64,000 bases of DNA, from NCBI GenBank assembly GCA_048885705.1, contig JBHLLJ010000001.1:8544-72543 (forward strand). The letters are read 5' to 3'. Source of the stretch: Candidatus Hermodarchaeota archaeon. Lineage in GTDB: Archaea; Asgardarchaeota; Lokiarchaeia; Sigyniarchaeales; SOKP01. Both the position numbers and the translations under genes were made by a program. Below are positions 2,181 to 63,378 of the stretch, piece after piece (position 1 is the first letter of the stretch; every line of letters starts with the position of its first letter). The notes under the pieces were generated by a model. The model saw only the letters and a program-made list of their open reading frames with translations, was not told the DNA's origin and did no database searches.

Positions 2181-2244
2181 TCTTAATTTTTATAGTTCAA
2201 GCTTAAAAGTAAAATTTCCTTCAAATAAGAATTTTTTAAAAAAT

Positions 2245-4281: not shown

Positions 4282-4387
4282 AGTTTAATCTAACTCCATT
4301 TAATATATAAATAATATTATTTTGGAGTTACTACTCTTTGAATTTAGTTGTCACTATTTATCTAACGATTGGTTAATTCAGGTTTGC

Positions 4388-21992: not shown

Positions 21993-22439
21993 ATTCTCAA
22001 GAAGGTTGGATTAGGAGGAACTTTCGATCATCTCCACGAGGGTCATAAATTTCTTTTGAAAATAGCATTATCTTTATCTGAATTTGTTGAAATAGGATTA
22101 ACTTCTCAAGACTTATTAAAAAATAAACAATATGCCTCAAAATTAGAAGATTATGACGCGAGAAAGGAAAATTTGAAATCGTTTGTAAATTCCATTGCTG
22201 ATTTAAATCGTATTAGGATTGTAGAAATAAAGAATTGGGAAGATATGGATAAATATGCTCAAGATCCAGAATATGAAGGTCTAGTTGTCAGTCAGGAAAC
22301 ATACGAAAATGGCCTAAAATTAAATGAGAATAGAGAAAGAATAGGATTAAAGCCTCTCGTTTTAATTGTAATTCCCTTACTCAAAGATAGTAATAATAAA
22401 AAAATTAATTCTACTTCAATAAGAGGAAAAATTAAATAA
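21993..22439 (+). CDS. phosphopantetheine adenylyltransferase, archaeal type (cytidylyltransferase-like fold)
   Basis: The track starts at a TTG (22056). The frame is open from 21993 and there encodes ILKKVGLGGTFDHLHEGHKFLLK, which is the GGTFDxLHxGH nucleotidyltransferase signature. In-frame stops lie at 21975, 21978 and 21990. No ATG, GTG or TTG lies between 21993 and the motif, so I propose the ATT at 21993 as the start. Confidence 0.7.
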   Translation: MLKKVGLGGTFDHLHEGHKFLLKIALSLSEFVEIGLTSQDLLKNKQYASKLEDYDARKENLKSFVNSIADLNRIRIVEIKNWEDMDKYAQDPEYEGLVVSQETYENGLKLNENRERIGLKPLVLIVIPLLKDSNNKKINSTSIRGKIK

Positions 22440-41528: not shown

Positions 41529-42677
41529 ATGATAAAACCACATGGTGGATTATTAATTAATAAAGAACTGCCTAGAATTGAGAAACAAAGGATATTGGGA
41601 GAAATTGATGAGTATGAAACCATAGAAGTTAACCCAGAAACTCTAAAAGTAATAAAGAATATTTGTTATGGAGTTTTTAGTCCTTTAGAAGGATTTTTAA
41701 ACGAAAATGATTATCATTACGTTTTAGATACCATGTACTTGGAAAATAATGTTGCATGGCCCCTTCCAATCACACTTGATGTTTCAGAACAAGAAATTAA
41801 AAGTATTAAACCTGGTGATAAAATAATTCTTAAAAATGAAAATGAAACTGCGATTGCATTAATGAGTGTTGAAACCATTTATAACTATGATAAAAAGGAA
41901 TACGCTGAAAAAACGTATGGTACATTAGATAAAAATCATCCAGGAGTTGAAGCTGTTTTCAATTATAAAAGAAAACTAATGGGTGGAGAAATTTTTCTAA
42001 TTACTGACCCAAAACCAATTTTTCCTGACTTAGATTTAAAACCTGTTGAAACAAGAGTACTTTTTAAGGAAAGGGGATGGGATAGAGTAGTTGCTTTTCA
42101 AACAAGGAATCCTCCTCATTTAGGGCATGAGTATGTTCAGAAAGCAGGATTGACATATGTAGATGGTCTTTTTATTAATCCTGTAATAGGAAAAAAGAAA
42201 GTGGGTGATTTTCTGGATGAAGTAATAATTGAATCATATAAAGCATTAATAAAAGAATATTATCCAAAAGATAGAGTGGTTTTAAGCACATTTGAAACAG
42301 AAATGAGATATGCTGGCCCAAAAGAAGCTATTTTCCATGCAATAGCAAGAAAAAATTATGGGTGCGATCATATTATTATTGGAAGAGATCATGCTGGCGT
42401 TGGAGATTACTATGGTCCATATGATGCACATTATATCTTCGATAGATTTCCAGATTTAGGAATCGAACCAATAAAATTTAGATCTTTTTCAAAATGCAGT
42501 AAATGTGATGGAGTTGTGAATGATAAAATTTGCCCTCATCCTCCCGAGAAGCAAAATTATTTTGCAGGAAGAGAAATAAGAGATTCTATACGACAAGGAA
42601 AACCACCTAGTATTGAAGTTATGCGTCCTGAAGTCGCCGAGGTTATCCTTAGATATAAAAATCCATTCGTAACATGA
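41529..42677 (+). CDS. sat: sulfate adenylyltransferase (ATP sulfurylase)
   Basis: 382 aa. Contains the N-terminal IKPHGG, QTRNPPHLGHEY and IIGRDHAGVGDYYG. Confidence 0.93.
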   Translation: MIKPHGGLLINKELPRIEKQRILGEIDEYETIEVNPETLKVIKNICYGVFSPLEGFLNENDYHYVLDTMYLENNVAWPLPITLDVSEQEIKSIKPGDKIILKNENETAIALMSVETIYNYDKKEYAEKTYGTLDKNHPGVEAVFNYKRKLMGGEIFLITDPKPIFPDLDLKPVETRVLFKERGWDRVVAFQTRNPPHLGHEYVQKAGLTYVDGLFINPVIGKKKVGDFLDEVIIESYKALIKEYYPKDRVVLSTFETEMRYAGPKEAIFHAIARKNYGCDHIIIGRDHAGVGDYYGPYDAHYIFDRFPDLGIEPIKFRSFSKCSKCDGVVNDKICPHPPEKQNYFAGREIRDSIRQGKPPSIEVMRPEVAEVILRYKNPFVT

Positions 42678-42713
42678 TTTTAATTTTAATATTTAGATTC
42701 AAGTTTTTCGATC

Positions 42714-44096
42714 ATGATTAGAAAGAAATTATTTATCATCGGATTAGATTGCGCAACGCCAAAAACATTATTTGAAGAATTTATCGGGGATTGTCCTAAT
42801 ATAAGAAAATTGATGGAATCAGGTGTCTATGGAAAACTAAGGACATGTGATCCTCCAATCACAATTCCTGCTTGGTTAGTAATGTCAACAGGGAAAAAAG
42901 CTGGAACCTTAGGATTATACGGTTTTAGACATAGAAAAAAGAATTCCTATGGTGATTTCTGGATTGCTTCTTCTTTTAGTACAAAAGAACCAAAAGTATG
43001 GGATATTATTGCTCAAAAAAACTTAAAATCATGTATTTTAGGAATACCACCAACTTATCCGCCTCAAAAAGTAAATGGGTGCCTTGTCACAGGATTTATT
43101 ACTCCAGACCGCAATACAGAATTCACATACCCGCCAGAGCTTAAAACTGAAATTTTAAAGTACATTGGAGATTACATTTTCGATGTTAATTTTAGAGTGG
43201 ATAAGAAAGAGAAATTGTTAAAAGAAATTTATGAAATGAGTGAGATTCAATTTAAAACTGTAAAATTTTTAATGCAAAATAAAGAATGGGATTACTTTAA
43301 ATTCGTGATAATAGGTTTAGATAGATTCCATCATGCATTTTGGAAATATTTTGATAAAAATCATCATAAATATAAACCCGGAAATGAGTTTGAATTTGAA
43401 ATGAAAAAATATTATCATTATTTAGATAATAAAATAGGAGAACTTTTAGATTTACTCGATGTTAATACAATGATAATGGTAGTATCAGATCATGGTGCAA
43501 AAGCAATGAAAGGATTGATATGTATAAACATGGCTCTTGAAGATTTAGGATATTTGAAATTCAAAACAAAGCCAAAACCAAGAACTAGAATTGGAGATGC
43601 AGACATTGATTGGAATAATACTTATGCCTGGGGATGGGGTGGATATTATGCACGAATATTTTTAAATTTAAAAGGTAGAGAACCAAATGGAATTATAGAA
43701 GAAAAAGATTTTGAAAAGTATCGAGAGGAAATTAGGCAAAGATTGAAAAGTATAAAGGATTCTAATGGGAATCCAATGAATACTAAGATCTATAAACCAG
43801 AAGAGATTTTTGAGATTACCCGAGGGGATTCACCTGATTTAATTGTATATTTTGATGATTTGAATTGGAGATCAGCGGGAACAGTTGGGTATGACTCAAT
43901 GTATTTAAGTGAAAATGATACTGGACCTGATGATGCTGTTCATGATTGGTATGGTATATATATTATTAATGATCCAAAGAAAAAAATAGGGAAAGATTTA
44001 GGAATTAAAAGTATTCTTGACATAGCACCTACTTCTCTTGATCTTTTAGGTTTTGAGGTTCCTTTTGATATGGAAGGTAATATTATTAGATTTTAG
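42714..44096 (+). CDS. alkaline-phosphatase-superfamily protein, nucleotide pyrophosphatase/phosphodiesterase (NPP)-like
   Basis: 460 aa. Contains FIIGLDCATP (metal Asp), DPPITIPAWLVMSTGKKAGTLGLYGF (Thr nucleophile context, like the NPP T-x-P-x-h...TG) and MVVSDHGAK. It sits between sat and cysC with gaps of 36 and 19 bp. Confidence 0.8.
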   Translation: MIRKKLFIIGLDCATPKTLFEEFIGDCPNIRKLMESGVYGKLRTCDPPITIPAWLVMSTGKKAGTLGLYGFRHRKKNSYGDFWIASSFSTKEPKVWDIIAQKNLKSCILGIPPTYPPQKVNGCLVTGFITPDRNTEFTYPPELKTEILKYIGDYIFDVNFRVDKKEKLLKEIYEMSEIQFKTVKFLMQNKEWDYFKFVIIGLDRFHHAFWKYFDKNHHKYKPGNEFEFEMKKYYHYLDNKIGELLDLLDVNTMIMVVSDHGAKAMKGLICINMALEDLGYLKFKTKPKPRTRIGDADIDWNNTYAWGWGGYYARIFLNLKGREPNGIIEEKDFEKYREEIRQRLKSIKDSNGNPMNTKIYKPEEIFEITRGDSPDLIVYFDDLNWRSAGTVGYDSMYLSENDTGPDDAVHDWYGIYIINDPKKKIGKDLGIKSILDIAPTSLDLLGFEVPFDMEGNIIRF

Positions 44097-44102
44097 AGGA
44101 GG
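44097..44102 (+). promoter_or_regulatory. Shine-Dalgarno AGGAGG upstream of the cysC GTG start
   Basis: It lies 13 nt before the GTG at 44116. The frame opens only at 44110, after TAA 44107-44109, so the GTG is the only available start. Confidence 0.5.
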
Positions 44103-44115
44103 TATGTAAGTAAAA

Positions 44116-44661
44116 GTGGAACATAAAGGATTTACATTGTGGTTTACTGGACTTCCATGTTCGGGTAAAAGCATCCTTGCGAACGCAGTTGCTGAGGACT
44201 TAAGAGCCCGCGGAATGAAAGTAGAACGCCTTGATGGAGATATCGTAAGAAAAAGTCTAACTAGAGATTTGGGTTTTACTGAAGAAGATAGAAATATGAA
44301 CATTGAACGAGTAACATTTGTAGCTAAATTATTAACTCGAAATGGAGTGGCTGTACTTGCTTCTTTTGTATCACCATATAATAAGATTAGAGATTATTCA
44401 CGCGAAGAAATTGGTGACTACATTCTTGTATATGTAAAATGTTCTCTTGAGGAATGTGAAAAGCGTGATGTTAAGGGAATGTACGCAAAAGCCAGAGCAG
44501 GTGAAATAAAAGATTTCACTGGAATTGATCATCCTTTTGAAGAACCGGATAAAGCAGATATAATTGTTGAAACTGATATACAAACAGTAGAAGAAAGCAA
44601 AGAAATTATATTGAAAGCCCTAGATTCGATGGGATATTTGCCTAATAAAAATAAACAATGA
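44116..44661 (+). CDS. cysC: adenylylsulfate (APS) kinase
   Basis: 181 aa. Contains the P-loop FTGLPCSGKS, LDGDIVR, and SFVSPY. Confidence 0.9.
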   Translation: MEHKGFTLWFTGLPCSGKSILANAVAEDLRARGMKVERLDGDIVRKSLTRDLGFTEEDRNMNIERVTFVAKLLTRNGVAVLASFVSPYNKIRDYSREEIGDYILVYVKCSLEECEKRDVKGMYAKARAGEIKDFTGIDHPFEEPDKADIIVETDIQTVEESKEIILKALDSMGYLPNKNKQ

Positions 44662-44687: not shown

Positions 44688-45617
44688 TTAATTAATTAAA
44701 AGTTTTTTTACTTGTTTTAATACTTCTTGTCTATTCAAGCTATATTTATTTAATAAAATTTCTCTTTTACCTGATTGGGCAAATTTATTATTAATTCCAA
44801 CGAATCTTATTTTTTTAGGATCCTTTTTTGAGATGATTCGGGCAATTATACTTCCAAAACCACAATAGATATTATGTTCTTCTAGAACTACAATTCCTTC
44901 AACATCATTAATCTCATTTAATAAAGTTTTTTCATCTATGGGTTTAACAGTTGGAAGATTAATTACTTTAATTGATAAATTTAATTCTTTTTCGATACTT
45001 AAGACTGAATCAAAAGCCAACACAGTTCCATAGCCAATTCCAATCAAACAAATATCTTTTCCTTCTTTTAATATATCAGGTTTACCTATTTTAAAATTAT
45101 AATCATCATTATGTATTTTAGGAAATGAACCTCTTGGTAATCGAACATAAAAAGTACCTTCAGTTTTAAATACAAATTCTAATATTTTAACAAGTTCAAG
45201 GTTATCTGATGGCACTAATACAGTTATATTGGGTAAAGATCCCATTAAACTTAAATCCTCTAAAGCGTTATGAGTACTTCCATCTTGTCCTACAATCCCC
45301 CCATGTGTAGTCACAATTTTTACATTCAAATTATCATGACAGGCAAATCTTATAAATTCCCATGCTCTTCCAGTTGTAAAGATGGAAAATCCACTTACAA
45401 CAGGAATTTTACCCGAGATTGCAAATCCCAATGCTGTACCTAACATATTTTGTTCAGCAATCCCCATATTAAAGAACCGTTGAGGAAATTTTTTAGCAAA
45501 TTTACTTGTCCTGGTAGAAGTAGAAAGATCTGCATCTAATACTACAATATCTTTATTTTTTTGACCTTCTTCAACTAAAAAAACTCCGAAAGTATCTCTA
45601 AGTGTCGAGTTTGGCAT
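44688..45617 (-). CDS. transketolase, C-terminal (pyrimidine-binding) subunit
   Basis: 309 aa. Contains NMGIAEQNMLG and THGGIVGQDGSTHNALEDL. Its ATG abuts the stop of the N-terminal subunit (45615-45620, cat|tta on the plus strand). Confidence 0.9.
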   Translation of the reverse strand: MPNSTLRDTFGVFLVEEGQKNKDIVVLDADLSTSTRTSKFAKKFPQRFFNMGIAEQNMLGTALGFAISGKIPVVSGFSIFTTGRAWEFIRFACHDNLNVKIVTTHGGIVGQDGSTHNALEDLSLMGSLPNITVLVPSDNLELVKILEFVFKTEGTFYVRLPRGSFPKIHNDDYNFKIGKPDILKEGKDICLIGIGYGTVLAFDSVLSIEKELNLSIKVINLPTVKPIDEKTLLNEINDVEGIVVLEEHNIYCGFGSIIARIISKKDPKKIRFVGINNKFAQSGKREILLNKYSLNRQEVLKQVKKLLIN

Positions 45618-46484
45618 TTAAAACCCCTCTAAGAGTTCTTTTTTAATTTTCTCAAGCTCTTTAAGAGCAGCTTCATATTCTTGTTTATTAGGTGCCCTTC
45701 CATGAAACTCTCTAGTGTGTTGCATAAAGGATATTTCAGATCCTTTGATTAGATAAGATATTATTACTTTAGGTTTACCAATTATAGACTTAGAACGTTC
45801 AAACCCTTGCAATAAGTTTGTTAAATTCGAACCATCAATTTCAATTACTTCCCAACCAAAAGCCTTCCATTTCTCTCCTAATGGTTCTAATGCCATTATC
45901 TCTTCTGTTGAACCATCTATCTGCAATCCATTACGATCCACAATTGCAATTAGATTGTCTAATTTAAAGTGATTAGCTGACATAGCTGCTTCCCAAATTG
46001 CACCTTCATTTAATTCTCCATCTCCTAATAAAACAAATATTTTTTTATCAGAATTATCTAATTTAGCAGATAAAGCACATCCAATACCAATCGATAAACC
46101 CATTCCTAAAGAACCTGTAGAGATCTCTATTCCAAATTCTGGATTTTTAACTGGGTGACCCTGTAATTTTGAGTTAAACTCTCTTAAAGTAAATAATTCC
46201 TCTCTTTTTATTAGACCAAATTTTGATAAAACAGCATATAGTGCAGGTGCTGCATGACCCTTACTCAATATAAACATATCTCTTTCTTTCCAAGAAGGAT
46301 TTTTAAAATTAATTCTCATTATAGAATAATATAGAAGATATATAATAGTAACACATGATAATGAGCCACCTGGATGACCAGATTGAGCGTTATATATCAT
46401 TTTCAAAATATCTTTTTTGATATCTAAAATATCAATTAAAATTTTTTTTTCAATCGTTTTAGAAAGTGCCATTCTAACACACAA
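45618..46484 (-). CDS. transketolase, N-terminal (TPP-binding) subunit
   Basis: 288 aa. Contains SGHPGGSLS, LSKGHAAPALYA, LLGDGELNEGAIWEA and VDRNGLQIDG. Confidence 0.9.
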   Translation of the reverse strand: MCVRMALSKTIEKKILIDILDIKKDILKMIYNAQSGHPGGSLSCVTIIYLLYYSIMRINFKNPSWKERDMFILSKGHAAPALYAVLSKFGLIKREELFTLREFNSKLQGHPVKNPEFGIEISTGSLGMGLSIGIGCALSAKLDNSDKKIFVLLGDGELNEGAIWEAAMSANHFKLDNLIAIVDRNGLQIDGSTEEIMALEPLGEKWKAFGWEVIEIDGSNLTNLLQGFERSKSIIGKPKVIISYLIKGSEISFMQHTREFHGRAPNKQEYEAALKELEKIKKELLEGF

Positions 46485-46493
46485 ATTAGTAAA

Positions 46494-47492
46494 TTATATT
46501 TTTTTCATTTTAGCTATTATATATTTTTGAAGTTGATCCTGTTTATAGAATTCTACTGGAGGGAGGGTTGCTGTAAGTGCAGCAGCATAAAGTGCAATTT
46601 TAATTCCATCTGAAATCGAAATTTTAGAGGCATAAGTCAACCCTAAAATAGCCATAATTACACTACCAACTGCTACATAACTTCTAACTGGTTGTTTCAG
46701 TATAGGTTGAAATTTTTCAATTGTATCATTTCCCCTTGAAAAGAGATATGATTCTAATTCTAAGTAATTTAAAAGTAAGCTTTTGCATTTTGATGCGTTT
46801 AAAATTCTTTTTCCAGCAATTATAATGCTAGTTTCATTACAACAATCGATTGAAAATGTATCCAAAGCTTTTTGAAGATTCATTTTAATTAAGTCTACAT
46901 TTTCATAAAGATAATAATTTGAAATGGTAGGGCGTACTATTATTGGTACATCTTGAAATTTTTCTTTCAATAAAAATAACAATTTTTGTATAAATTGATC
47001 ATTGAAAATACCACCTAAACCATAATCTAAAATTAAAATAGATGATATATCTTGAGAACTTTCGGCTATTAAATTTTTGAATTTTTCTTTAATTGATGGA
47101 GAAATATCTCTATTATAATCAGTTTCTAATCGTAAGAGATGCTGATTCATAGCTTTTATTCTAGTTATTTGGGGAGTTTTTATTGTTTCATTTATAAGAA
47201 TTCCAGAATGATTTAATTTTAAGTCTTTAATCTTTTTTAAAAAAAAATCTCCTTCAAAATCATTACCGATTATAGTACAAACCTTTGGGATTCCTCCTAA
47301 TGATTGAATAAATTGCAGAACTAAACCAATTGCACCGATATAAATATTACTGTTCTCTATTTTAACATTAGGGACAGGAGCATCAGGAGATATTCTATCT
47401 GTGTGACCAAAAATATATTTATCTATTAATGCATCTCCAATAACCAATACATTTTTTTTATTCCATTTGGAAATTTCATCAATAAGAGCCAT
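46494..47492 (-). CDS. PfkB-family carbohydrate kinase homolog, RfaE/HldE domain-I-like, with degenerate catalytic motifs
   Basis: 332 aa. The N-terminus VLVIGDALIDKYIFGHTDRISPDAPVPNV closely parallels heptose-7-P kinase domain I. However, GGAANV is replaced by GAIGLV, and the GAGD anion-hole/catalytic-Asp motif by AVGS (46662-46673). Confidence 0.65.
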   Translation of the reverse strand: MALIDEISKWNKKNVLVIGDALIDKYIFGHTDRISPDAPVPNVKIENSNIYIGAIGLVLQFIQSLGGIPKVCTIIGNDFEGDFFLKKIKDLKLNHSGILINETIKTPQITRIKAMNQHLLRLETDYNRDISPSIKEKFKNLIAESSQDISSILILDYGLGGIFNDQFIQKLLFLLKEKFQDVPIIVRPTISNYYLYENVDLIKMNLQKALDTFSIDCCNETSIIIAGKRILNASKCKSLLLNYLELESYLFSRGNDTIEKFQPILKQPVRSYVAVGSVIMAILGLTYASKISISDGIKIALYAAALTATLPPVEFYKQDQLQKYIIAKMKKI

Positions 47493-47499
47493 TTTCCAA

Positions 47500-48156
47500 T
47501 TATTTTTTTAATTCTCTTTGTAATTTTTCCCAATCTTTTAGAAATGCCTCTAAGCCTTGATCAGTATTAGGGTGTTTGAACATTTTTTCAAGTACATCGA
47601 ACGGAATTGTAGCAATATGTGCTCCGATTTTAGCAGCTTCAATAACATGTCTAGTATTTCTCACAGAAGCAACTATTAGTTCAGAATTGAAATCGTATGC
47701 ATTTAAAATATCCATAGATTCCCAAAGAAAATCTATTTCATTTTGACCATTATCCATTAACCTTCCTATAAAAGGACTTATATATGAAGCTCCAGCTTTT
47801 GCTGCGATCAAGACTTGATTTTGTGAAAAAACAAGAGTGACGTTTGTTTTTATTCCTTCAGCTTCAAGTATTTTTACGGCTTTAATACCATCCTTAGTAA
47901 AAGGGATCTTTATTATTATATTCGGTGCAATTTTTGCTAATTCACGTGCTTCTTTAACCATTTCTTGTGCAGTTAACCCGATAACTTCTCCACTTACAGG
48001 TCCATCAACAATTTCACAGATTTTTTTCAATTGTTCCGTCGGATCAGCCCCTTCTTTCGCCAAAAGTGTAGGATTAGTAGTTACCCCATCGATTATTCCC
48101 AGTTCCTGCATTTCTTTAATTTGTGCTAAATTAGCAGTATCTATAAAAAATTTTAT
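47500..48156 (-). CDS. tal: transaldolase (short TalC/FSA-type)
   Basis: The track starts at an internal Met (48111). The frame is open to 48162 and encodes [31 protein letters not shown]..., collinear with the MKFF(I/L)DTAN N-termini of short transaldolases. The Schiff-base Lys context is [10 protein letters not shown], and SPFIGR is also present. I propose the ATA at 48156-48154 as the start, preceded by GGTGA. Confidence 0.8.
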
Positions 48157-48162
48157 ATTTTT

Positions 48163-48167
48163 TCACC
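48163..48167 (-). promoter_or_regulatory. Shine-Dalgarno GGTGA, 6 nt upstream of the ATA codon at 48156
   Basis: The minus strand reads ...taatGGTGAaaaaatATAaaatttttt.... Confidence 0.45.
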
Positions 48168-48199
48168 ATTATATTTGATGATTATATTAATTATTTGTT

Positions 48200-48748
48200 T
48201 TATATATTTATAGCAAATTCTTTTAAATTTTTAAATATCATGTCTGGTATCATAGAGCTAATATTTTTTTGTTCCTCTTTTCCATAACCTGTTAAGACTA
48301 AAACAGTTTTACAATTTGCAGCTTTACCTGTTTGAATATCATTTAATGTATCTCCAACCATATATGATTTTGTTAAATCAATATTATATTTTGATTTAGC
48401 TTTTAAAATCATCGCAGGATTTGGTTTCCTACAATTACATGGACCTGTAAAGTCAGGATGATGAGGACAATAATAAATATCATCTAATTCAATTCCTTGT
48501 TTTTCCAATCTACTAATCATTTTATTATGAATTGTTTTAAGAGTTTCCTCTGTAAAAAAGCCCCTGGCAATACCTGCTTGATTGGTAATAATAATAAGTA
48601 AAAAACCTTTTTGTTTGAGGATTTTTAAAGCTTCAATTGAACCTTTAATAAATTTAAAGTTTTTTGGATTTGAGAGATAATTGACCTCCTTGTTAATTAC
48701 ACCATCTCGATCCAAGAAAACTGCTCTCTTTTTTTCACTCATATTCAT
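48200..48748 (-). CDS. gmhB: D-glycero-D-manno-heptose 1,7-bisphosphate phosphatase (HAD-IIIA)
   Basis: Contains AVFLDRDGVIN (motif I), IITNQAGIARG (motif II) and the Zn-binding insert YYCPHHPDFTGPCNCRKP, then GDTLNDI. The start is probably ATG 48748 or 48742, not the track start at 48793. Confidence 0.85.
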   Translation of the reverse strand: MNMSEKKRAVFLDRDGVINKEVNYLSNPKNFKFIKGSIEALKILKQKGFLLIIITNQAGIARGFFTEETLKTIHNKMISRLEKQGIELDDIYYCPHHPDFTGPCNCRKPNPAMILKAKSKYNIDLTKSYMVGDTLNDIQTGKAANCKTVLVLTGYGKEEQKNISSMIPDMIFKNLKEFAINI

Positions 48749-49370
48749 CTGAAAATTTAAGCATATTAATAATTTTATTTGGATCTTGAGCATTTAAAAT
48801 AGAACTTGAGCTTGTTAATATATCAGTTTTGAATAGTAGCTTCGCGTTTATTAAATTAACTCCACCATCAATATCAATAATAAAGTTATATTTACTCTTA
48901 TATTCAGCCAATTTATTTAATTTATCTATAGAATTAATTAAAAATTTTTGACCTGACCAGCCAGGATTTACACTCATTACTAAAATCATATCAATTTTTT
49001 TAAGATATGGTATAATTTCCTTAATATTCGTCCCTGGATTTATTGCGATACCAACTTTTTTATTGTATTTCTTTACTTCTTTTATAATTTTATCTTTATT
49101 ATTATCTATTTCAAAATGAAATAAGAAGATGTCAATATAATTAATAACATCTTTAATGTAACTAAATGGATCAACGACCATAAAATGGGCAATAATAGGA
49201 AAACTAAAAGCTTCATTTATCTTTTGAAAAACATCTAAATTTCTGCTTTCATTATTTACAAATATTCCATCCATGATATCTACATGAATGTAATCGAATC
49301 CTTCCAATCCTTTTAAAACATCCACAGTGAAGTTTTCTTTAGCATGAATTGAAATTGCGACTTTTTTCAT
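48735..49370 (-). CDS. rpe: ribulose-phosphate 3-epimerase-like
   Basis: Contains YIHVDIMDGIFVNN, AHFMV, FHFE, VMSVNPGWSGQKF and IDIDGGVN, which run collinear with Rpe. I prefer the Met at 49370 (MKKVAISIH...) to the track start at 49403. Confidence 0.75.
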   Translation of the reverse strand: MKKVAISIHAKENFTVDVLKGLEGFDYIHVDIMDGIFVNNESRNLDVFQKINEAFSFPIIAHFMVVDPFSYIKDVINYIDIFLFHFEIDNNKDKIIKEVKKYNKKVGIAINPGTNIKEIIPYLKKIDMILVMSVNPGWSGQKFLINSIDKLNKLAEYKSKYNFIIDIDGGVNLINAKLLFKTDILTSSSSILNAQDPNKIINMLKFSDEYE

Positions 49371-49380
49371 ATATAATCGA

Positions 49381-49947
49381 TTACTCAAAAAGTTCTTTCT
49401 CAACTAAATAACAAATAATATGTCCTACTGTAATATGTCCTTCTTGAATTCGTGGAGTATCTGTTGAGGGTATTTTTAAACAAAGATCAACTATTTCTTC
49501 TATTTTATTATGCTTTTGACCTGTAAAGCCTATCGTTATTGCCCCTTTCTCTTTAGCTTTCAGTAAACCTTTAATTACATTTGGTGAATTACCAGAAGTG
49601 CTAATTCCAATGACTATATCTCCGTTCTCAACAAATGAAGATACTTGTCTCTCAAATACTAAGTCATAACCAAAGTCATTAGCAGTTGCTGTAAGAACAG
49701 AAGTATTAGTATGAAACGCTAACGAGGGAAGTGAAGGTCGGTCTTTGTAAAATTTACCCACAAATTCTGCGGCTATATGTTGGGCATCCGCCGCACTTCC
49801 ACCATTACCAAACAGAATAACTTTCTTCTTTTTTTTGTAGGCATTAATAATTTTTTTGGAAATTTTTGCTACAATTGGTGCTAGGACCTTTATAGCTTCT
49901 TTTACTTTAATATTTTCGTTTAAAATCGAAATAATTTCATTTTCCAT
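49381..49947 (-). CDS. gmhA: sedoheptulose-7-phosphate isomerase (SIS domain)
   Basis: 188 aa. Contains LFGNGGSAADAQHIAAEFVGKF and LTATANDFGYDLVFERQV. Confidence 0.9.
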   Translation of the reverse strand: MENEIISILNENIKVKEAIKVLAPIVAKISKKIINAYKKKKKVILFGNGGSAADAQHIAAEFVGKFYKDRPSLPSLAFHTNTSVLTATANDFGYDLVFERQVSSFVENGDIVIGISTSGNSPNVIKGLLKAKEKGAITIGFTGQKHNKIEEIVDLCLKIPSTDTPRIQEGHITVGHIICYLVEKELFE

Positions 49948-49979
49948 ATTATTTTCTCTTTCTAAATGTTATATTAATT

Positions 49980-50990
49980 CTAATTTATTTTCCAAACTTC
50001 AAGTCCCTTAGGATTAAAATGAAAATTAACAATTACTCCACCTATTTTTTCCAACTCTTGAATTACGATACGTTTTTTATCAGGATCTGAAAAGAGTAAT
50101 AAATGCCCTCCACCTCCAGCACCTAATAATTTCCCCCCAAGAGTTCCGAACTTTCTTGAGGTAATATAAAAATTTTCAATATTTTTGTTAGATATTTTAT
50201 TACTTAAACTCTTTTTTGCTAACCAACCTTTATGTAAGAGTAGCCCAAATTCATTTAATTGATTTAAGTTGTTGGATTCTACAATTTTTTTCATAGAATG
50301 AGCAACATCTTTTAAATCTTGCATAACTTCGATGTAAGATTTTTTTTCAACTTTATAACCTTTTAATACTTCATCTTGTATATTTGAGGAGAAATGAGAG
50401 CCTCCTACATAACATAATATTAACCGAAATTGGAGTTCATTTATCATTTCTGGACTTGAAACAACAGGAGTAATTTTAACTTCATCAGAAAATTCAATAA
50501 AATTAAAACCCCCATAAACTGCAGCAAATTGATCTTGATATCCTCCTTTCTGCTTTAACTCAATCCGTTCAATATCATATGCTTTTTGAGCGATTTCGTA
50601 TTTAGAAAGTCCTAAATTATAATAGATATTTAAAGCACCAGTTAATGCTACAGATAAAGAAGATGATCCTCCCATTCCAGAACCAGCAGGAAGTTCTGAA
50701 TAGAAATTGATGTTAAACCCATCTTTCACATCTAAAACACTAAAAATTCCTTTGAACAATTCAAATTTGGTGGAATAATCTCTATCTCCAATTTCAAAAA
50801 TGAATTCTTCATTAAGATTATTTGAATAAATTCTCACTTGCTTATCAGATCTAGGCTTTAAAGTTATGTAAATATGACGATCTATTGTTGTGCTTATTAC
50901 ACAGCCTCCATGTTCAAGACAATATGGAGCCATATCTGTTCCTCCGCCTCCAAAACTAACTCTAAATGGTGCTTTTGAACGAATAATCAT
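49980..50990 (-). CDS. hddA: GHMP-family sugar kinase, D-glycero-alpha-D-manno-heptose-7-phosphate kinase-like
   Basis: 336 aa. Contains SKAPFRVSFGGGGTDMAPY, the GHMP motif LPAGSGMGGSSSLSVA, and GAGGGGHLLLF. Confidence 0.8.
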   Translation of the reverse strand: MIIRSKAPFRVSFGGGGTDMAPYCLEHGGCVISTTIDRHIYITLKPRSDKQVRIYSNNLNEEFIFEIGDRDYSTKFELFKGIFSVLDVKDGFNINFYSELPAGSGMGGSSSLSVALTGALNIYYNLGLSKYEIAQKAYDIERIELKQKGGYQDQFAAVYGGFNFIEFSDEVKITPVVSSPEMINELQFRLILCYVGGSHFSSNIQDEVLKGYKVEKKSYIEVMQDLKDVAHSMKKIVESNNLNQLNEFGLLLHKGWLAKKSLSNKISNKNIENFYITSRKFGTLGGKLLGAGGGGHLLLFSDPDKKRIVIQELEKIGGVIVNFHFNPKGLEVWKIN

Positions 50991-51206: not shown

Positions 51207-52340
51207 ATGACAAAAAAAGTTTTAATTACTGGAGGAGCAGGTTTCATCGGTTCTCATTTAGTTGATCATTTAATCGAACAAAAAGGTTATCAAATTTCAA
51301 TTCTAGATATTTTAGAAGAACAAGTCCATGGAAAAACCGATAAACCTCCTTCTTACTTGAATGAAAATTCTGAATTTTTCCGAGGTTCTGTAACTGATTA
51401 TAATAAATTGGAGAAATTAGTAAAAGAAAATGAGATCATTGTCCATATGGCTGCTATTGTTGGTGTAGGGCAATCGATGTACCAAATAGAAAAATATGTT
51501 GATAATAATATCCATGGATTAGCGAATTTGTTTGATATCTTAGTAAATAGTGAACATAATGTTGAAAAAGTTATTATTGCTTCCTCTAATACGGTATATG
51601 GAGAAACCAAATCTCAATGTAATGAATGCGGAGTGGTTTTTCCAAAACTACGAACCATAGATCAATTAAATAATAAAGAGTGGGAACTTAATTGTCCCAA
51701 ATGTGGATCTAAAGTTAAACCGCTATTAACAGATGAAAATTCACCTTTAAATCCTAGCTCCGTCTATGCCTTTTCCAAACTAGCTCAAGAAAGATTAAGT
51801 CTTATGATTGGTAATACTTATGGAATTAATACAACAGTTTTAAGATTTTTCTTAGTTTATGGTACAAGACAAGCCCTTTCTAATCCATACACTGGAGTCT
51901 GTTCAATCTTTAGCAGTAGAGCACTTTATGGAAAACCTCCGATTGTTTTTGAGGATGGAAATCAAACACGAGATTTTATAAATGTAGATGATATTTGTCA
52001 AGCTTTAATTCTTGCTATAGAGAAAAATGCTGCAAATGGTGAAATCTTTAATGTGGGTACTGGGACTCCAATTAAAATAAAAGATGTAGCAGAAATTATT
52101 CTTAAAAAAATAAATCCAAAATTAAAGCCCCTCTATTCTCAACAATTTAGAATCGGTGATATCAGACATAGTGTCGCAGATATTTCTAAAATAAAAAATA
52201 AATTATGTTTTTCACCAAATGTTACATTTAAAGAAGGAATTAATGATTTAATAGAATGGGTCAAAATTCGAAAAAAAGATCTACAAGAACCATCACAAAA
52301 GGCTATACAAGAATTAAAAGAAAAAGGATTATTAAAGTAG
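51207..52340 (+). CDS. SDR-family NAD-dependent sugar epimerase/dehydratase with an inserted CxxC-x21-CxxC zinc ribbon
   Basis: 377 aa. Contains VLITGGAGFIGSHLVDHL, ASSNTVYGE and YAFSKLAQE. Between the Ser and Tyr-x3-Lys elements lies KSQCNECGVVFPKLRTIDQLNNKEWELNCPKCGSKVKP (about 51606-51722). Confidence 0.85.
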   Translation: MTKKVLITGGAGFIGSHLVDHLIEQKGYQISILDILEEQVHGKTDKPPSYLNENSEFFRGSVTDYNKLEKLVKENEIIVHMAAIVGVGQSMYQIEKYVDNNIHGLANLFDILVNSEHNVEKVIIASSNTVYGETKSQCNECGVVFPKLRTIDQLNNKEWELNCPKCGSKVKPLLTDENSPLNPSSVYAFSKLAQERLSLMIGNTYGINTTVLRFFLVYGTRQALSNPYTGVCSIFSSRALYGKPPIVFEDGNQTRDFINVDDICQALILAIEKNAANGEIFNVGTGTPIKIKDVAEIILKKINPKLKPLYSQQFRIGDIRHSVADISKIKNKLCFSPNVTFKEGINDLIEWVKIRKKDLQEPSQKAIQELKEKGLLK

Positions 52341-52372: not shown

Positions 52373-53422
52373 ATGGAAAGAATACTCATAACGGGAGCAA
52401 ATGGTTTTTTAGGATCGCATCTAATTGATTTCTGTATTGAAAAAAATTATATGGTATATGGTATAGATAGACCGAATCAAACTTATAGGAATTTATCACA
52501 TTATACAAATCAAAAAATAAATTTCTCAGAAGAGGAAAAAGTAAGAATATTTAATGAAAATATTGAAATCCCAACTAATAATAAAAAATTAAAAATAATT
52601 GAATGCAATATAAAAAATTTTGAACTCCTAAAAAAAATAATAGCAGAAATTAAACCTAGGTTTTTATTTCATTTTGGAGCACAACCATTAGTATTACCTT
52701 CATGGAAAGATCCAGTAGATACTATAGAAACAAATGTAATAGGAACAATAAATGTATTTGAAGCAATTAAGAAGCATAAAATTCGTACTAGAGTTATAGT
52801 AGCTTGCACTAGTGCAGAATATGGAACAACAACTTCACTAAACAGACCATTAAAAGAATCAGATCCATTATTAGCCATACATCCTTACGGAATTAGTAAA
52901 GTGGCAACTGAATTACTTGCTCGTCAATATTTTATCAATTTTGGAATTGAAGTTATAAATCTTAGGTTTTTTAATCAAACAGGTCCTAGGAGAAGGGGGG
53001 ATGCAACTTCAGATTTTATCAAAAAAATAGCCCAGATTGAATTAGGTTTGTCAGAACCAGTAATTGAAGTTGGAAATCTTGAACCTTATAGAGATTATAC
53101 CGGGATTAAAGATTCAATTAAGGCAATCTGGTTAGCAGCAACAATGGGATCACCAGGAGAAACCTATAATATTTGTTCTAGTAAAAAGCTTCAGATTCGT
53201 CAAATTTTAGAGATCGCTCTAAGTTTTTCTGAAAAAAGGATTAAAGTAAAAGAAAATGTATCCCATAAATTAAGAAGAACTGATGAGGATATCATTCTCG
53301 GTGATAATACAAAGATTAAAAACGAATTAGGTTGGGATATTTCCACTCCTATAGAAGTAACTCTTAGAGATATGTTTGATTATTGGTTGGATTATTATAA
53401 AAAATATGGGTTTTCAGATTAA
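52373..53422 (+). CDS. SDR-family sugar-nucleotide dehydratase/reductase (GMD/Rmd-like)
   Basis: 349 aa. Contains ILITGANGFLGSHLIDF, ACTSAEYG and YGISKVATELLARQY. Confidence 0.85.
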   Translation: MERILITGANGFLGSHLIDFCIEKNYMVYGIDRPNQTYRNLSHYTNQKINFSEEEKVRIFNENIEIPTNNKKLKIIECNIKNFELLKKIIAEIKPRFLFHFGAQPLVLPSWKDPVDTIETNVIGTINVFEAIKKHKIRTRVIVACTSAEYGTTTSLNRPLKESDPLLAIHPYGISKVATELLARQYFINFGIEVINLRFFNQTGPRRRGDATSDFIKKIAQIELGLSEPVIEVGNLEPYRDYTGIKDSIKAIWLAATMGSPGETYNICSSKKLQIRQILEIALSFSEKRIKVKENVSHKLRRTDEDIILGDNTKIKNELGWDISTPIEVTLRDMFDYWLDYYKKYGFSD

Positions 53423-56807: not shown

Positions 56808-58451
56808 TTATCTTAAACAGAAACCACATTTACCAAATGATTTAATTGTTTGTTCCCAGCAATGATTATGATATGCTCGACTACAGTGGGGACATTCTGT
56901 ATGGCAATTATCTTCTCCAGCAATTTTTTTACTACAGCTTGGACATTCAATTTTATGACATATAACACATGATACAACTGAAATCTCGAAAATCTTTTTA
57001 GAGATCAAATTGAATAGGTCAACAAGATAGCTGAATGGAGTCCATTCATTGAAGAAATCATTAAATGAGGTATGTAAATCATTCTTAATTTTCTCATGAG
57101 CTTCTAAATCAAATTCATTTATCACTTTTACTTCAGGCATTTTCATTGGGTAATCAATTGGTAGATTAATCTGAAATTCAAATGTTAGATCTTCAGTTTT
57201 CATTTTACCTTTCATTTCGACATTTAAAGTTGCTGTTAATGGATCATATTTAATATTTTTATAATGATCTTTTAATAAATCAATTTCAAAATTGATTCTT
57301 GAATTTTTATCCACTAACCAAGATACTTCTCTCACAATCTCGACAGGTTCAGATACATTTTCTTCCCAATTTTTATAAGCTTTTAATTCTGTGATTGGAA
57401 TTGTAATAATTTCTTGCAATTCAGGGGATAGATCAATTTTAGGAGGTTTAGGATAAGTTTCTAAATCAATAGATAAAATATATTCCTTAAAACCATAAGT
57501 TAACATATGAACTTTTAGAGCTGTCAAACTATTGGGAATTTTTTCACACTTATATTCTCCTGATATCATTTTGGATTGTGTTTCAATTTCTTTGATGAAC
57601 AACAATCTTTTTTCTAGCTCATGCAATATTTCAATGATATGAGATGGTTTTTTTGAATTCCATTCTCTCAAAATATTTAAGTTTTTGTAAGGATCTCCTA
57701 AAATTTGACTTAATTCTTTTGGTAATTTTATATTTGGCTTTTCAGGATAATTTGTAAAATCTAGAGCGATTATAAATGTACTTGTAAGAGTAATTGTCAG
57801 ATATACATTAATATTTGCTTCATTGATACCAGCTTGATCATAAGCATATTCCTGTTGAATTAGACTCAATTCGGTATTAATTTCAATACTTAACGGGGCA
57901 CTTTGATCTTGGAAATCTTGTTTGAGAGGAGAATCATGCTCATTATCAGATTTTTCAACTATAGAACTTTCAAGATCCTTTAAATCGTAAAGATTTTCAT
58001 CAGTATAATCTAAGGGGTTAATTTCTTCTTCAAATTCGAAATCTGGTGGATATGCATTTAAATCAGGGGTTAGATATTCTTCTTCAGCTAAATTATTATG
58101 ATCTTCTTTAATAGGAACTGGTTTTTCTTCTGAAATCATTTTTGGTATTTCTAAAACGTTTTTTATTGCATTATTAAGTTCTAGAACGATATCAAGTACA
58201 TTAGATTCTGGAGTCCAATTAATTAAGGATTTGGGCTGAAAGGAACCTAAAGTTTCTTTTATTTCAGAATGATAAATTATTTTCGGTGGTGTTTTTGGGA
58301 ATTCTTCATCGAATTTAATTTCAATCTCATACTTTTTTCCTGCTGTCTCATAAATATAACCATATAAATGTGAAATGTCTCCAGAAACCATCCAAAATGA
58401 AAATTTTTTTGCTATTTGCTGTGCTTCTCTTAATATTCTCTGCTTATTCAT
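56808..58451 (-). CDS. 4x RWD/UBC-like (catalytic-Cys-less E2 fold) domains + acidic linker + C-terminal Cys/His-rich cross-brace-type zinc finger
   Basis: 547 aa. Four segments each carry the [FY]P-x3-P signature after a beta-strand: YEIEIKFDEEFPKTPPKIIY, IIALDFTNYPEKPNIKLP, ILSIDLETYPKPPKIDLS, FEFQINLPIDYPMKMPEVKV. The first is preceded by an E2-like helix, RILREAQQIAKKF. None has an HPN...Cys active site. The C-terminus (56811-56969) reads CVIC-x4-CPSC-x9-CHTECPHC-x4-HNHC-x10-CGFC. Confidence 0.65.
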   Translation of the reverse strand: MNKQRILREAQQIAKKFSFWMVSGDISHLYGYIYETAGKKYEIEIKFDEEFPKTPPKIIYHSEIKETLGSFQPKSLINWTPESNVLDIVLELNNAIKNVLEIPKMISEEKPVPIKEDHNNLAEEEYLTPDLNAYPPDFEFEEEINPLDYTDENLYDLKDLESSIVEKSDNEHDSPLKQDFQDQSAPLSIEINTELSLIQQEYAYDQAGINEANINVYLTITLTSTFIIALDFTNYPEKPNIKLPKELSQILGDPYKNLNILREWNSKKPSHIIEILHELEKRLLFIKEIETQSKMISGEYKCEKIPNSLTALKVHMLTYGFKEYILSIDLETYPKPPKIDLSPELQEIITIPITELKAYKNWEENVSEPVEIVREVSWLVDKNSRINFEIDLLKDHYKNIKYDPLTATLNVEMKGKMKTEDLTFEFQINLPIDYPMKMPEVKVINEFDLEAHEKIKNDLHTSFNDFFNEWTPFSYLVDLFNLISKKIFEISVVSCVICHKIECPSCSKKIAGEDNCHTECPHCSRAYHNHCWEQTIKSFGKCGFCLR

Positions 58452-61989: not shown

Positions 61990-63378
61990 ATGTCAAAAAA
62001 AATTTTAATTTTGGGTGGTCTTGGATACATTGGTAATGTATTATATGACATTATTAAACAAGAAGATTGGGAAGTAGATGTAATGGATAACCGTCTATAT
62101 AAAGATCTACATCCTCAGATTCCTTACATTGAAGCAGATGTAAGAAATAGAGAACAGATGGAAAAATTAATTAAGAATTACGATGTAATAGTAAATCTCG
62201 CAGCAATAGTTGGGGATCCTGCTTGCTTAATAGACACGAGTTTAGCAATTGAAATAAATTGTATAGGAGCAAGAAATGTAGCAGAAATATGTAAAAAATT
62301 AAAAAAGTTCATAGTACACATTAGCACTTGTAGTATTTATGGAAGTGAGCCAAACAAAATTGTCAAGGAAGAAGATGAGGGATTCCCAATTGATTTTTAT
62401 GGCCAAACAAAGTATACTCAAGAAAGATTAATAAGGGAAATATGCAATGATAATCATTGTATCCTAAGATTAGGTACAGCATATGGGTTAAGTCCAAGAA
62501 TGCGATATGATTTAGTTGTAAATACTTTTGCTGCCAGAGCTCTAAAATTTAATAAAATAACAATTTTCGGTGGAGAACAAGAACGCCCATTTGTTCATAT
62601 TCGTGATATTTCAAGGGCAATCATACATGTTATCAACAATGAGTTACATGGAATTTATAATGTAAGGGGTGAAAATCTTAGTCTTTTAAAATTAGGAGAA
62701 ATCGTTAGAGATATAACAAATTGTGAAATTGAAATAAATAGAAATATTGTTGATAATAGGAGTTATATGGTAGATAGTACAAAATTAAAAAAAACCGGCT
62801 TCGAATTCAAATACAATATAAAATATGCAGTGAATGAAATCATTAACTCTCCAACGGCATTAGAATTTCATAAAGGAATATATTCTAATCTAAAATTAGC
62901 TGAAAGAGTAAAAATATCCAGTACAATTGGTAAGAGAGAATTAAATCTAATTAATGGAGGAATAGCTGTTGATGACAGAGGAACACTTAATTTTGCTAAT
63001 GATTTCAATTTTTATGGAGTTAAACGTTTTTATCAGGTTCAAAATTTTAATACATCAACAATTCGTGCATTCCATGGTCATCTAAATGAAGCTAAATATG
63101 TATTTGTTTCAAAAGGTTCTGCTATTGTTGCTGCTGTTAAATTAGATGATGTTAAATCTCCCTCGAAAAATCAAAAGGTTAATAGATTCATATTATCAGA
63201 CAGAAGTCCACAAATATTATTTATTCCACCGAAATATGCTAATGGCTTTAAACCTTTAGAAGAAGATACTCGAATAATTTTCTTTTCGACAAGTTCCCTT
63301 GAAGAGAGTAAAGGAGATGACTACCGTTTTCCCATAGATTACTGGGGTAAAGAAATATGGGAAGTAGAGAATCGTTGA
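61990..63378 (+). CDS. fusion protein: N-terminal SDR epimerase/reductase domain + C-terminal RmlC/FdtA-like cupin domain
   Basis: 462 aa. The SDR part has ILILGGLGYIGNVL, STCSIYG and YGQTKYTQERL. The C-terminal ~140 aa reads DDRGTLNFAN...VKRFYQVQN...IRAFHGHLNEAKYVFVSKGSAIV...LFIPPKYANGF, the cupin sugar epimerase/ketoisomerase pattern. Confidence 0.8.
   Translation: MSKKILILGGLGYIGNVLYDIIKQEDWEVDVMDNRLYKDLHPQIPYIEADVRNREQMEKLIKNYDVIVNLAAIVGDPACLIDTSLAIEINCIGARNVAEICKKLKKFIVHISTCSIYGSEPNKIVKEEDEGFPIDFYGQTKYTQERLIREICNDNHCILRLGTAYGLSPRMRYDLVVNTFAARALKFNKITIFGGEQERPFVHIRDISRAIIHVINNELHGIYNVRGENLSLLKLGEIVRDITNCEIEINRNIVDNRSYMVDSTKLKKTGFEFKYNIKYAVNEIINSPTALEFHKGIYSNLKLAERVKISSTIGKRELNLINGGIAVDDRGTLNFANDFNFYGVKRFYQVQNFNTSTIRAFHGHLNEAKYVFVSKGSAIVAAVKLDDVKSPSKNQKVNRFILSDRSPQILFIPPKYANGFKPLEEDTRIIFFSTSSLEESKGDDYRFPIDYWGKEIWEVENR

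Follow-up and report, generated by a model that had tools for sequence, protein, structure and literature searches.

Eight consecutive genes on the minus strand (positions 44688-50990) of a 64,000-nucleotide stretch of Candidatus Hermodarchaeota DNA, hereafter called the window, form a conserved operon of Asgard archaea of the Lokiarchaeia type, and we judge it reasonably probable that its products turn common pentose and hexose phosphates into a precursor of activated heptose. In operon order, the genes encode a GHMP-family kinase resembling HddA, the isomerase GmhA, a protein resembling ribulose-phosphate 3-epimerase (Rpe-like), the phosphatase GmhB, a transaldolase (Tal), a protein related to PfkB and to RfaE domain I (PfkB-like), and the N- and C-terminal halves of a transketolase (TktN and TktC). 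An earlier note on this DNA had proposed that enzymes forming sedoheptulose-7-phosphate (S7P) are coupled here to GmhA, HddA and GmhB. This coupling is now backed by synteny in about 34 Asgard species, and by a transketolase-linked core in deeper Asgard lineages and in Hadarchaeota. Catalytic motifs are intact in seven of the eight genes, the exception being the gene for the PfkB-like protein.

Layout of the operon and its enzymes

The genes were identified from the open reading frame (ORF) listing and from scans with Pfam and NCBIfam models, and their boundaries (Table 1) are those of the public gene calls on an identical 16.7-kb contig (L001; GCA_048886825.1). According to these calls, successive genes in operon order are separated by 32, 10, -8, 43, 7, 21 and 0 bp. 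The earlier note had listed the same eight genes with the same order and coordinates, joined by gaps or overlaps of about 90 bp or less, and our scans agree, with gaps of 0-43 bp and a single overlap of 8 bp. The operon and its flanks do not differ in GC content (about 25-36% throughout the window, which comes from a low-GC Asgard archaeon), and thus there is no sign of recent transfer.

The two transketolase halves together cover the 627-position transketolase model NF004559. TktN matches positions 25-283 of this model (296 bits) and Pfam Transketolase_N (163 bits), and it carries the motifs SGHPGG, KGH, GHP, GDGELNEG...DRNGLQIDG and FHG. TktC matches positions 320-624 (250 bits) as well as Pfam Transket_pyr (135 bits) and Transketolase_C (65 bits), and its motifs include GIAEQNM and THGGIVGQDGSTH. 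The GDG...N motif that binds thiamine diphosphate (ThDP), the catalytic His, the cofactor-activating Glu and the substrate-phosphate Arg positions are kept across both halves, with functions that we take to be those of the corresponding residues in the Escherichia coli and yeast enzymes.

The transaldolase exceeds the cut-off of model TIGR00875 (279 versus 246 bits). If the protein is assumed to begin at an ATA codon, its residues include Asp6 (FIDTAN), Glu57, Lys83 (IIIKIPFT) and Phe129 (SPFIGR). The Glu and the Phe mark the transaldolase type rather than the fructose-6-phosphate (F6P) aldolase type, as known from TacTal and FSA. The ATA codon (48154-48156, minus strand) is present both in the window and in the identical public contig. 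In all 35 orthologous loci the gene begins with ATG AAA TTT TTT, where the window reads ATA AAA TTT TTT, and a start at the first in-frame ATG (48111) would remove the catalytic Asp6. The codon may be a real AUA start, the mark of a weakened gene or a base-call error.

The Rpe-like protein scores 131 bits with Pfam Ribul_P_3_epim, 174 bits with NF004076 (cut-off 165) and 141 bits with TIGR01163, which is under the cut-off of 212.6. Its His/Asp/His/Asp metal and catalytic positions align with those of human RPE (3ovp), its phosphate-loop residues differ, and it is the fastest-evolving member of the cassette, with a median score ratio across species of 0.60.

Of the three enzymes assigned to the heptose branch, the kinase matches Pfam GHMP_kinases_N and GHMP_kinases_C and finds its best NCBIfam model in HddA, which it matches over the full length (234 bits versus an equivalog cut-off of 600). 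Its translation carries the GHMP motifs PAGSGMGGSSS and GAGGGG, and it gives full-length matches (177-184 bits) to the solved HddA/WcbL heptose-7-phosphate kinases 4n3o, 3k85 and 4usk. GmhA matches Pfam SIS_2 (94 bits), and its four best NCBIfam models are all GmhA models (143-177 bits, under equivalog cut-offs of 209-320). Its translation contains NGGSAADAQHIAAEF and QEGHITVGH, and the catalytic Glu and His motifs are present. For both enzymes, the best models and the best solved relatives are heptose enzymes. GmhB passes the cut-offs of NF006506 (206.6 bits; cut-off 178) and TIGR00213 (172.9 bits; cut-off 149.6), and both its DxDGT-type motif (DRDGVIN) and its Cys/His zinc motif (CPHHP...CNCRKP) are present.

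Table 1. Genes of the operon, in operon order, and neighbouring features, with positions in the window. SDR, short-chain dehydrogenase/reductase; PAPS, 3'-phosphoadenosine-5'-phosphosulfate; APS, adenosine-5'-phosphosulfate.
Feature	Position	Strand	Basis and remarks
GHMP-family sugar-1-kinase, HddA/WcbL-like (candidate D-glycero-D-manno-heptose-7-phosphate 1-kinase, alpha route)	49980-50990	-	Operon gene 1; best NCBIfam model HddA
GmhA, sedoheptulose-7-phosphate isomerase (SIS domain)	49381-49947	-	Pfam SIS_2 and NCBIfam GmhA models
Ribulose-phosphate 3-epimerase-like protein (Rpe-like)	48735-49370	-	Pfam and NCBIfam Rpe models
GmhB, heptose-1,7-bisphosphate 7-phosphatase (HAD-IIIA)	48200-48742	-	Exceeds NCBIfam cut-offs
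Small-type transaldolase (Tal), 218 aa	47500-48156	-	TIGR00875 above cut-off; ATA start
PfkB-fold protein derived from HldA/RfaE domain I (PfkB-like)	46494-47492	-	Best model TIGR02198, under cut-off; kinase motifs lost
Transketolase N-terminal half (TktN; ThDP/PP domain)	45618-46472	-	Pfam Transketolase_N
Transketolase C-terminal half (TktC; Pyr and C domains)	44688-45617	-	Pfam Transket_pyr and Transketolase_C; begins immediately after the tktN stop
SDR1, extended SDR (epimerase/dehydratase family) with CxxC...CxxC insert	51207-52340	+ (divergent)	Pfam Epimerase in two stretches
SDR2, GDP-sugar SDR of the GMD/RMD clade, candidate GDP-heptose 4,6-dehydratase or 4-reductase	52373-53422	+	Pfam GDP_Man_Dehyd, 225 bits
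Second GMD/reductase-clade SDR, edge of glycan locus	27619-28770	-	Pfam GDP_Man_Dehyd, 268 bits
PAPS module (convergent)	41529-44661	+	Pfam
ATP sulfurylase	41529-42677	+	Pfam
'Phosphodiest' protein	42714-44096	+	Pfam
APS kinase	44116-44661	+	Pfam

Conservation of the cassette across archaea

We scanned for related cassettes with an alignment of PfkB-like proteins as the query and one genome per species. It recovered 34 Asgard loci, whose identity was 53-85%, and below these came a Hadarchaeota contig with 26% identity and bacterial HldA and HldE proteins with approximately 19-26%. When the window proteins were mapped onto the scanned loci, 27 loci were found to span the region from GHMP to TktC. 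All 27 have GHMP, GmhA, Tal, PfkB-like, TktN and TktC in the same order, and most also have Rpe (24 of 27) and GmhB (25 of 27). Rpe follows TktC in two loci (L030 and L031) and is absent from three others (L032, L034 and L038). In most species the cassette is part of a longer synteny block that runs from genes for a protein resembling ubiquitin-conjugating enzyme (UBC-like), isoleucyl-tRNA synthetase (IleRS), SDR2 and the divergent SDR1, through the cassette, to convergent genes for APS kinase, an alkaline-phosphatase-superfamily protein and ATP sulfurylase. The outer flanks in other genomes are unrelated housekeeping genes.

A smaller core without Tal or Rpe, GHMP-GmhA-GmhB-PfkB-like-TktN-TktC, is found in Asgard contigs that are more distantly related. 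The Hadarchaeota contig has the order PfkB-TktN-TktC-HddC-like nucleotidyltransferase-GHMP-GmhA-GmhB-GT4, and none of the bacterial HldE loci examined has a transketolase neighbour. Together, these arrangements indicate that the linkage between transketolase and the heptose genes is old, specific to archaea and selected. The Lokiarchaeia-type lineage later added Tal and Rpe to this older core. The earlier note had held that tkt, tal and rpe genes present as sole copies would be ordinary genes clustered by chance. That argument fails because the operon is conserved across lineages, which excludes chance clustering at any copy number.

A different possibility is that the tkt, tal and rpe genes constitute a housekeeping non-oxidative pentose phosphate pathway (PPP) into which heptose genes have been inserted, such that the operon coordinates central carbon metabolism and heptose is a side branch. 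The transketolase, transaldolase and Rpe-like protein do look canonical and catalytically intact, papers on Asgard metabolism list the non-oxidative PPP without heptose (PMC11291895; bioRxiv 10.1101/2025.07.22.663070), and the 64-kb window has no second copy of tkt, tal or rpe. The best 120 TktN homologs are all cassette-type orthologs with at least 74% identity and include no second group, a result that is uninformative on copy number. However, three separate archaeal lineages that differ in gene order all place transketolase with PfkB, GHMP, GmhA and GmhB, which is hard to explain unless the supply of S7P to the heptose branch is the selected function. In addition, Rpi and other PPP genes lie outside the cassette, and Tal and Rpe joined a transketolase-heptose core that already existed, with Rpe variable in position. 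We consider the housekeeping explanation unlikely as a full account of the operon, although the two explanations are not mutually exclusive.

Several other arrangements were encountered among the loci. Two contigs, the Hadarchaeota contig (CAZWBJ010000021; L043, 5955-11480) and L096 (6049-9172), encode an apparently intact HldA-type PfkB together with an HddA-type GHMP kinase, GmhA and GmhB, and the former also encodes the split transketolase and the HddC-like gene. We know of no bacterial precedent for two anomeric kinases in one operon. The context of the homolog P0145 is a PfkB-GHMP-GmhA-GmhB cassette at a contig end. The genes of the nearest intact kinases (P0136 and P0137) are bacterial and stand alone, with neither transketolase nor heptose genes beside them, and a metagenome scan with the intact Hadarchaeota PfkB for cassettes combining two kinases and HddC gave only five short contigs. 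Three loci (L035, 4067-5092; L040, 4628-5632; L038, 1-171) encode a divergent second GHMP-kinase paralog (approximately 185 bits to the cassette kinase), immediately upstream of the cassette and in the opposite orientation. Finally, contigs from metagenome-assembled genomes (L009-L042) whose cassette proteins are 70-98% identical have been labelled Hodarchaeota, Hermodarchaeota, Thorarchaeota, Odinarchaeota, Promethearchaeota or Lokiarchaeia. Because near-identical proteins appear under differing depositor labels, the phylum and class labels of this series look unreliable.

The PfkB-like protein is predicted to be a pseudokinase

The PfkB-like protein reaches 143.9 bits with TIGR02198, whose cut-off is 345, and 24.7 bits with Pfam PfkB, whose gathering score is 25.8. 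Alignment to Burkholderia cenocepacia HldA and canonical relatives reveals that GG(A)xN is replaced by GAIGL, NxxE by NLQK and GAGD by AVGS, with Ser at the position of the catalytic Asp. The same loss is seen in every Asgard locus of the cassette scan and in 120 of 120 database homologs, whereas the kinase motifs are intact in bacterial relatives, in the Hadarchaeota protein and in contig L096. The earlier note had placed this PfkB homolog among the heptose-activation enzymes, but with all three motifs lost it cannot be counted as a heptose kinase.

Other features of the protein have been retained. Its structure as predicted by AlphaFold2 (pLDDT 85.6) has B. cenocepacia HldA as the top Foldseek matches (E = 2e-23; TM-score 0.76-0.83), and HldA is its sole sequence match in the PDB. 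The N-terminal GDxxxDxY...RISPDAPVP segment is kept, as are other columns that are invariant in canonical kinases, such as D24, T106, R111, R121 and D156. Around the former active site there are conserved motifs specific to the clade, namely NETS, RSYVAVGS and LPPVEF. The cross-species score ratio of the protein (0.72) equals that of TktC (0.72) and is near that of TktN (0.77). Its gene always lies directly upstream of tktN, and in one locus (L007) the two genes overlap.

Loss of the motifs combined with a kept HldA fold and conservation equal to that of TktC points to a conserved pseudokinase, functional but almost certainly not a kinase. It would be a former HldA-type heptose-7-phosphate kinase that lacks the phosphotransfer machinery and is held under purifying selection. 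Its most likely role might be that of a non-catalytic, sugar-phosphate-binding partner of the transketolase encoded beside it, either regulatory or scaffolding, although this is the weakest step of our model. A bolder proposal, which we offer tentatively and consider rather doubtful, is that the protein is no relic and instead represents a new functional module found only in Asgard archaea. It could be a pseudokinase that binds S7P or a heptose phosphate, forms a complex with the split transketolase and gates the flux of S7P into heptose synthesis, or it could be a ribokinase fold remodelled to perform the activation step that is otherwise missing. If either option is true, Asgard archaea would make a lineage-typical heptose glycan (possibly 6-deoxy and sulfated) by a mechanism unlike that of both bacterial heptose pathways. 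On the pseudokinase reading as such, the operon offers a clean natural case of a deeply conserved metabolic pseudokinase that is derived from HldA and always encoded beside transketolase.

Search for the missing nucleotidyltransferase

The observation in the earlier note that the window has no nucleotidyltransferase of the HddC or HldC type holds. Family scans together with motif and phmmer scans found no heptose-1-phosphate-activating NTP_transferase or cytidylyltransferase encoded in the window, and in the loci of 34 related Asgard species, motif and phmmer scans of the 10 kb around the cassette found no heptose-1-phosphate nucleotidyltransferase. All-against-all clustering of the unassigned ORFs from 35 Asgard loci, conducted to reveal a hidden conserved partner gene, yielded only antisense shadow ORFs of known genes. 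The nucleotidyltransferase of the Hadarchaeota cassette has HddC as its best match (149 bits).

Candidates for the missing enzyme were considered and rejected. The only ORF in the window with a cytidylyltransferase fold (21993-22436, plus strand, with the motif GTFDHLHEGH) encodes pantetheine-phosphate adenylyltransferase (NF001985, 124.7 bits; cut-off 104). In L017 and L041, the NTP_transferase ORFs close to the cassette encode glucose-1-phosphate cytidylyltransferases of the RfbF type (TIGR02623, 328 bits; cut-off 300). The adenylyltransferase gene has its own peculiarity, in that its GGTFDHLHEGH motif starts five codons after a TAG stop. It has no usable ATG, GTG or TTG, and the ATT at 21993 is the only possible start, which makes it one of two genes in the window, together with the transaldolase gene, that have an AT(A/T) start.

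These results bear on an explanation in which the end product is not a classical nucleoside-diphosphate (NDP)-heptose made by HddC or HldC. Heptose-1-phosphate or heptose-1,7-bisphosphate might instead be used directly, for example by transfer to a lipid carrier or as a metabolite, or the PfkB-fold protein might replace the missing step. Cassette neighbourhoods with the dead PfkB have no heptose-1-phosphate nucleotidyltransferase in the window or in any of the Asgard loci, the lone cassette with an HddC-like gene has an intact PfkB, and the strong conservation of the PfkB-like protein, with its clade-specific motifs around the former active site, is in keeping with such a replacement. However, the correlation between HddC and an intact PfkB rests on a single cassette, nucleotidyltransferase genes are often unlinked, and the adjacent GDP-sugar SDRs imply a nucleotide-activated substrate. 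We also know of no precedent for nucleotidyl transfer by a ribokinase fold, which counts against the PfkB-like protein as the activating enzyme. We regard a non-classical end product as improbable, and we prefer an NDP-heptose route that is completed by an enzyme encoded elsewhere.

Neighbouring genes and the surrounding glycan locus

The earlier note had suggested that the two divergent SDRs modify the nucleotide-heptose, and the closest solved relatives of SDR2 make them good candidates. These relatives are a GDP-6-deoxy-D-lyxo-4-hexulose reductase (2pk3, 203 bits) and a GDP-D-glycero-D-manno-heptose 4,6-dehydratase (7us5, 147 bits), and the likeness of SDR2 to GDP-heptose and GDP-mannose dehydratases and reductases points to a GDP-alpha-heptose route. 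SDR2 is syntenic in 18 of the 27 loci, and SDR1 adjoins the cassette in 16 of 27. The nearest solved relatives of SDR1 are generic NAD-dependent epimerases and UDP-hexose 4-epimerases. Its CxxC...CxxC insert (residues ~139-170), which resembles a zinc ribbon, splits the Rossmann/epimerase domain, and a 377-aa form of the protein is kept beside SDR2 in many Asgard loci. The second SDR of the GMD/reductase clade in the window matches 2pk3 (204 bits), GMDs and 7us5 (131 bits), and has orthologs near PAPS genes in L019, L033 and L039.

In 15-19 of the 27 loci, tktC is immediately followed by the PAPS module. Between its ATP sulfurylase and APS kinase genes, most related loci keep a gene for a protein of the alkaline-phosphatase superfamily (460 aa in the window). 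No NCBIfam family covers this protein and the PDB contains no relative by sequence, and it could be a 3'-phosphoadenosine-5'-phosphate nucleotidase or an enzyme of sulfuryl transfer.

From 27.6 to 63.4 kb, the window encodes several GT4 glycosyltransferases, an ABC-2 exporter pair, methyltransferases, a sulfatase-like protein and an RmlD-RmlC fusion, in addition to the PAPS genes. The presence of an ABC-2 exporter and GT4 glycosyltransferases alongside GDP-sugar SDRs would fit the entry of a nucleotide-activated heptose into a glycan. The fusion protein (61990-63378, plus strand), at the edge of this locus, joins an N-terminal RmlD-like reductase to a C-terminal cupin resembling dTDP-4-dehydrorhamnose 3,5-epimerase. 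A 547-aa protein (56808-58451, minus strand) whose N-terminal region resembles ubiquitin-conjugating enzymes and RWD domains is syntenic with IleRS and the cassette, also in L003, L009-L012, L016, L027, L030, L032, L039 and L041. Unrelated to the operon, genes for histidine ammonia-lyase and urocanase (histidine degradation) are found beside a gene for a 579-aa leucine-rich-repeat protein at 651-6127 (minus strand).

Proposed pathway and its significance

GmhA, HddA, GmhB and HddC constitute the established route to GDP-D-glycero-alpha-D-manno-heptose. Many archaea produce pentoses by the ribulose monophosphate route and otherwise have no source of S7P. From the gene identities, motif states and synteny described above, we infer substrates, anomer, nucleotide and glycan fate as follows. 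The split transketolase would transfer a C2 unit from F6P or xylulose-5-phosphate to ribose-5-phosphate to give S7P. In the Loki lineage, transaldolase would then combine the by-product erythrose-4-phosphate (E4P) with F6P to yield S7P and glyceraldehyde-3-phosphate, and the Rpe-like epimerase would convert ribulose-5-phosphate to xylulose-5-phosphate. With Tal and Rpe recruited, both products of transketolase would be drawn towards S7P. GmhA is predicted to isomerize S7P to D-glycero-D-manno-heptose-7-phosphate, the HddA-type GHMP kinase to phosphorylate C1 (presumably of the alpha anomer) and GmhB to remove the 7-phosphate, leaving heptose-1-phosphate. A nucleotidyltransferase encoded elsewhere in the genome would be needed to form what is most likely GDP-heptose. 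The adjacent GDP-sugar SDRs could then produce a 6-deoxy or epimerised heptose that feeds the surrounding glycosyltransferase and ABC-transporter glycan locus, and the syntenic PAPS genes suggest that the glycan is sulfated. The steps from S7P formation through heptose-1-phosphate follow from the established enzymology of these families, and those of nucleotide activation, SDR modification and sulfation are deduced from genomic context.

Several points weigh against this pathway. The matches of GmhA and HddA are under the NCBIfam equivalog cut-offs, so that the identity of their substrates has to be inferred, and GmhB fits the beta-anomer model better than the alpha-specific NF050049 (151 bits; cut-off 250), though the kinase is of the alpha (GHMP) type. 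The ATA start codon makes expression of the transaldolase in the host uncertain, and the absence of a nucleotidyltransferase from the window and the cassette neighbourhoods leaves the activating step unaccounted for. Should the genome contain no other tkt, tal and rpe, the operon genes would have to support general pentose and E4P metabolism as well. Finally, no plain heptose was reported for P. syntrophicum, the sole Asgard archaeon with glycoproteomics (bioRxiv 10.64898/2026.04.15.718822). This species is not among the cassette-bearing loci that we found.

The sub-threshold matches of GmhA and HddA would also suit a higher-carbon sugar other than heptose, for example an octose made in the manner of the lincosamide LmbR/LmbN/LmbP/LmbK route. 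In that route the transaldolase LmbR makes octulose-8-phosphate, on which the GmhA-, HddA- and GmhB-like enzymes LmbN, LmbP and LmbK then act, and its set of transaldolase, SIS isomerase, GHMP kinase and HAD phosphatase is the same as that of the operon. An octose nevertheless seems highly improbable. The ancestral cassettes have transketolase and no transaldolase, and transketolase acting on ribose-5-phosphate normally gives S7P. Moreover, GmhB passes the cut-offs for heptose-bisphosphate phosphatase, and the top-scoring models and solved relatives are all those of heptose enzymes.

Heptose has precedents in archaea, and the statement in the earlier note that it is essentially uncharacterised there was too strong. 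The N-glycan of Thermoplasma acidophilum contains heptose (PMC11407970), and archaeal NDP-heptose enzymes have been assayed, at least as the work of Tang et al. 2024 is summarised in two commentaries (PMC11461863; PMC11573728). Our literature search found only general reviews of archaeal glycans and commentaries on Tang 2024, and no description of a transketolase-linked heptose operon, of this pseudokinase or of heptose in Asgard archaea. The pathway itself, the GDP-heptose route, is known. The new aspects of the Asgard version are a built-in supply of S7P, a conserved pseudokinase derived from HldA and the lack of a linked nucleotidyltransferase.

No known organisms are more closely related to eukaryotes than the Asgard archaea, and almost nothing is known about the chemistry of their cell surface. 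The operon predicts a heptose-based surface glycan, probably GDP-activated and possibly sulfated, in many Lokiarchaeia-type archaea, and this prediction is testable. It also suggests that the tkt, tal and rpe genes listed as non-oxidative PPP in Asgard reconstructions are wired into a glycan pathway, which would alter how those reconstructions are read.

Comparison with known systems

The GDP-heptose pathway and its 6-deoxyheptose branch, which uses a dehydratase (DmhA/WcbK) and a reductase (DmhB/WcbJ), are known from the S-layer glycan of Aneurinibacillus, the capsule of Campylobacter jejuni, the O-antigen of Yersinia pseudotuberculosis and the wcb cluster of Burkholderia pseudomallei. As in this pathway, the Asgard operon unites a SIS isomerase, a putative GHMP 1-kinase and a HAD 7-phosphatase, with SDRs of the GMD/RMD clade adjacent. 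Its layout resembles the bacterial GDP-(6-deoxy)heptose clusters, namely wcb of B. pseudomallei and the dmhA/dmhB loci of C. jejuni and Y. pseudotuberculosis, and like the wcb capsule cluster it shares its locus with GT4 glycosyltransferases and an ABC-2 exporter. However, the Asgard operon has no HddC/WcbM gene in or near it, and transketolase, transaldolase and an Rpe-like protein are built in. It further differs in having an extra, catalytically dead PfkB, an archaeal host and a syntenic PAPS module.

The PfkB-like protein shares with HldA and with domain I of HldE both the HldA fold and the N-terminal GDxxxDxY...RISP(D/E)APVP segment. Unlike these enzymes, it has had its GG(A)xN, NxxE and GAGD motifs replaced, it has neither an adenylyltransferase domain nor an HldC partner, and it is encoded beside a transketolase.

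A parallel to the proposed supply of S7P exists in the lincosamide octose pathway, where an aldol or ketol transferase that forms the precursor is encoded with GmhA-, HddA- and GmhB-like enzymes and the higher sugar phosphate is built within the cluster. That pathway, in contrast to the Asgard operon, belongs to a bacterial natural-product cluster, yields a C8 product and has its own nucleotidyltransferase (the guanylyltransferase LmbO), with no transketolase and no pseudokinase.

Finally, the operon resembles the split transketolase and non-oxidative PPP genes of other archaea in that tkt is divided into N- and C-terminal halves, the transaldolase is small (~218 aa) and an rpe-type gene is clustered with tkt. 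In Methanocaldococcus jannaschii, for example, the tkt halves flank rpe. In the Asgard archaea, however, these genes are interleaved with heptose genes in one operon, and in the deeper lineages transketolase alone accompanies the heptose genes.

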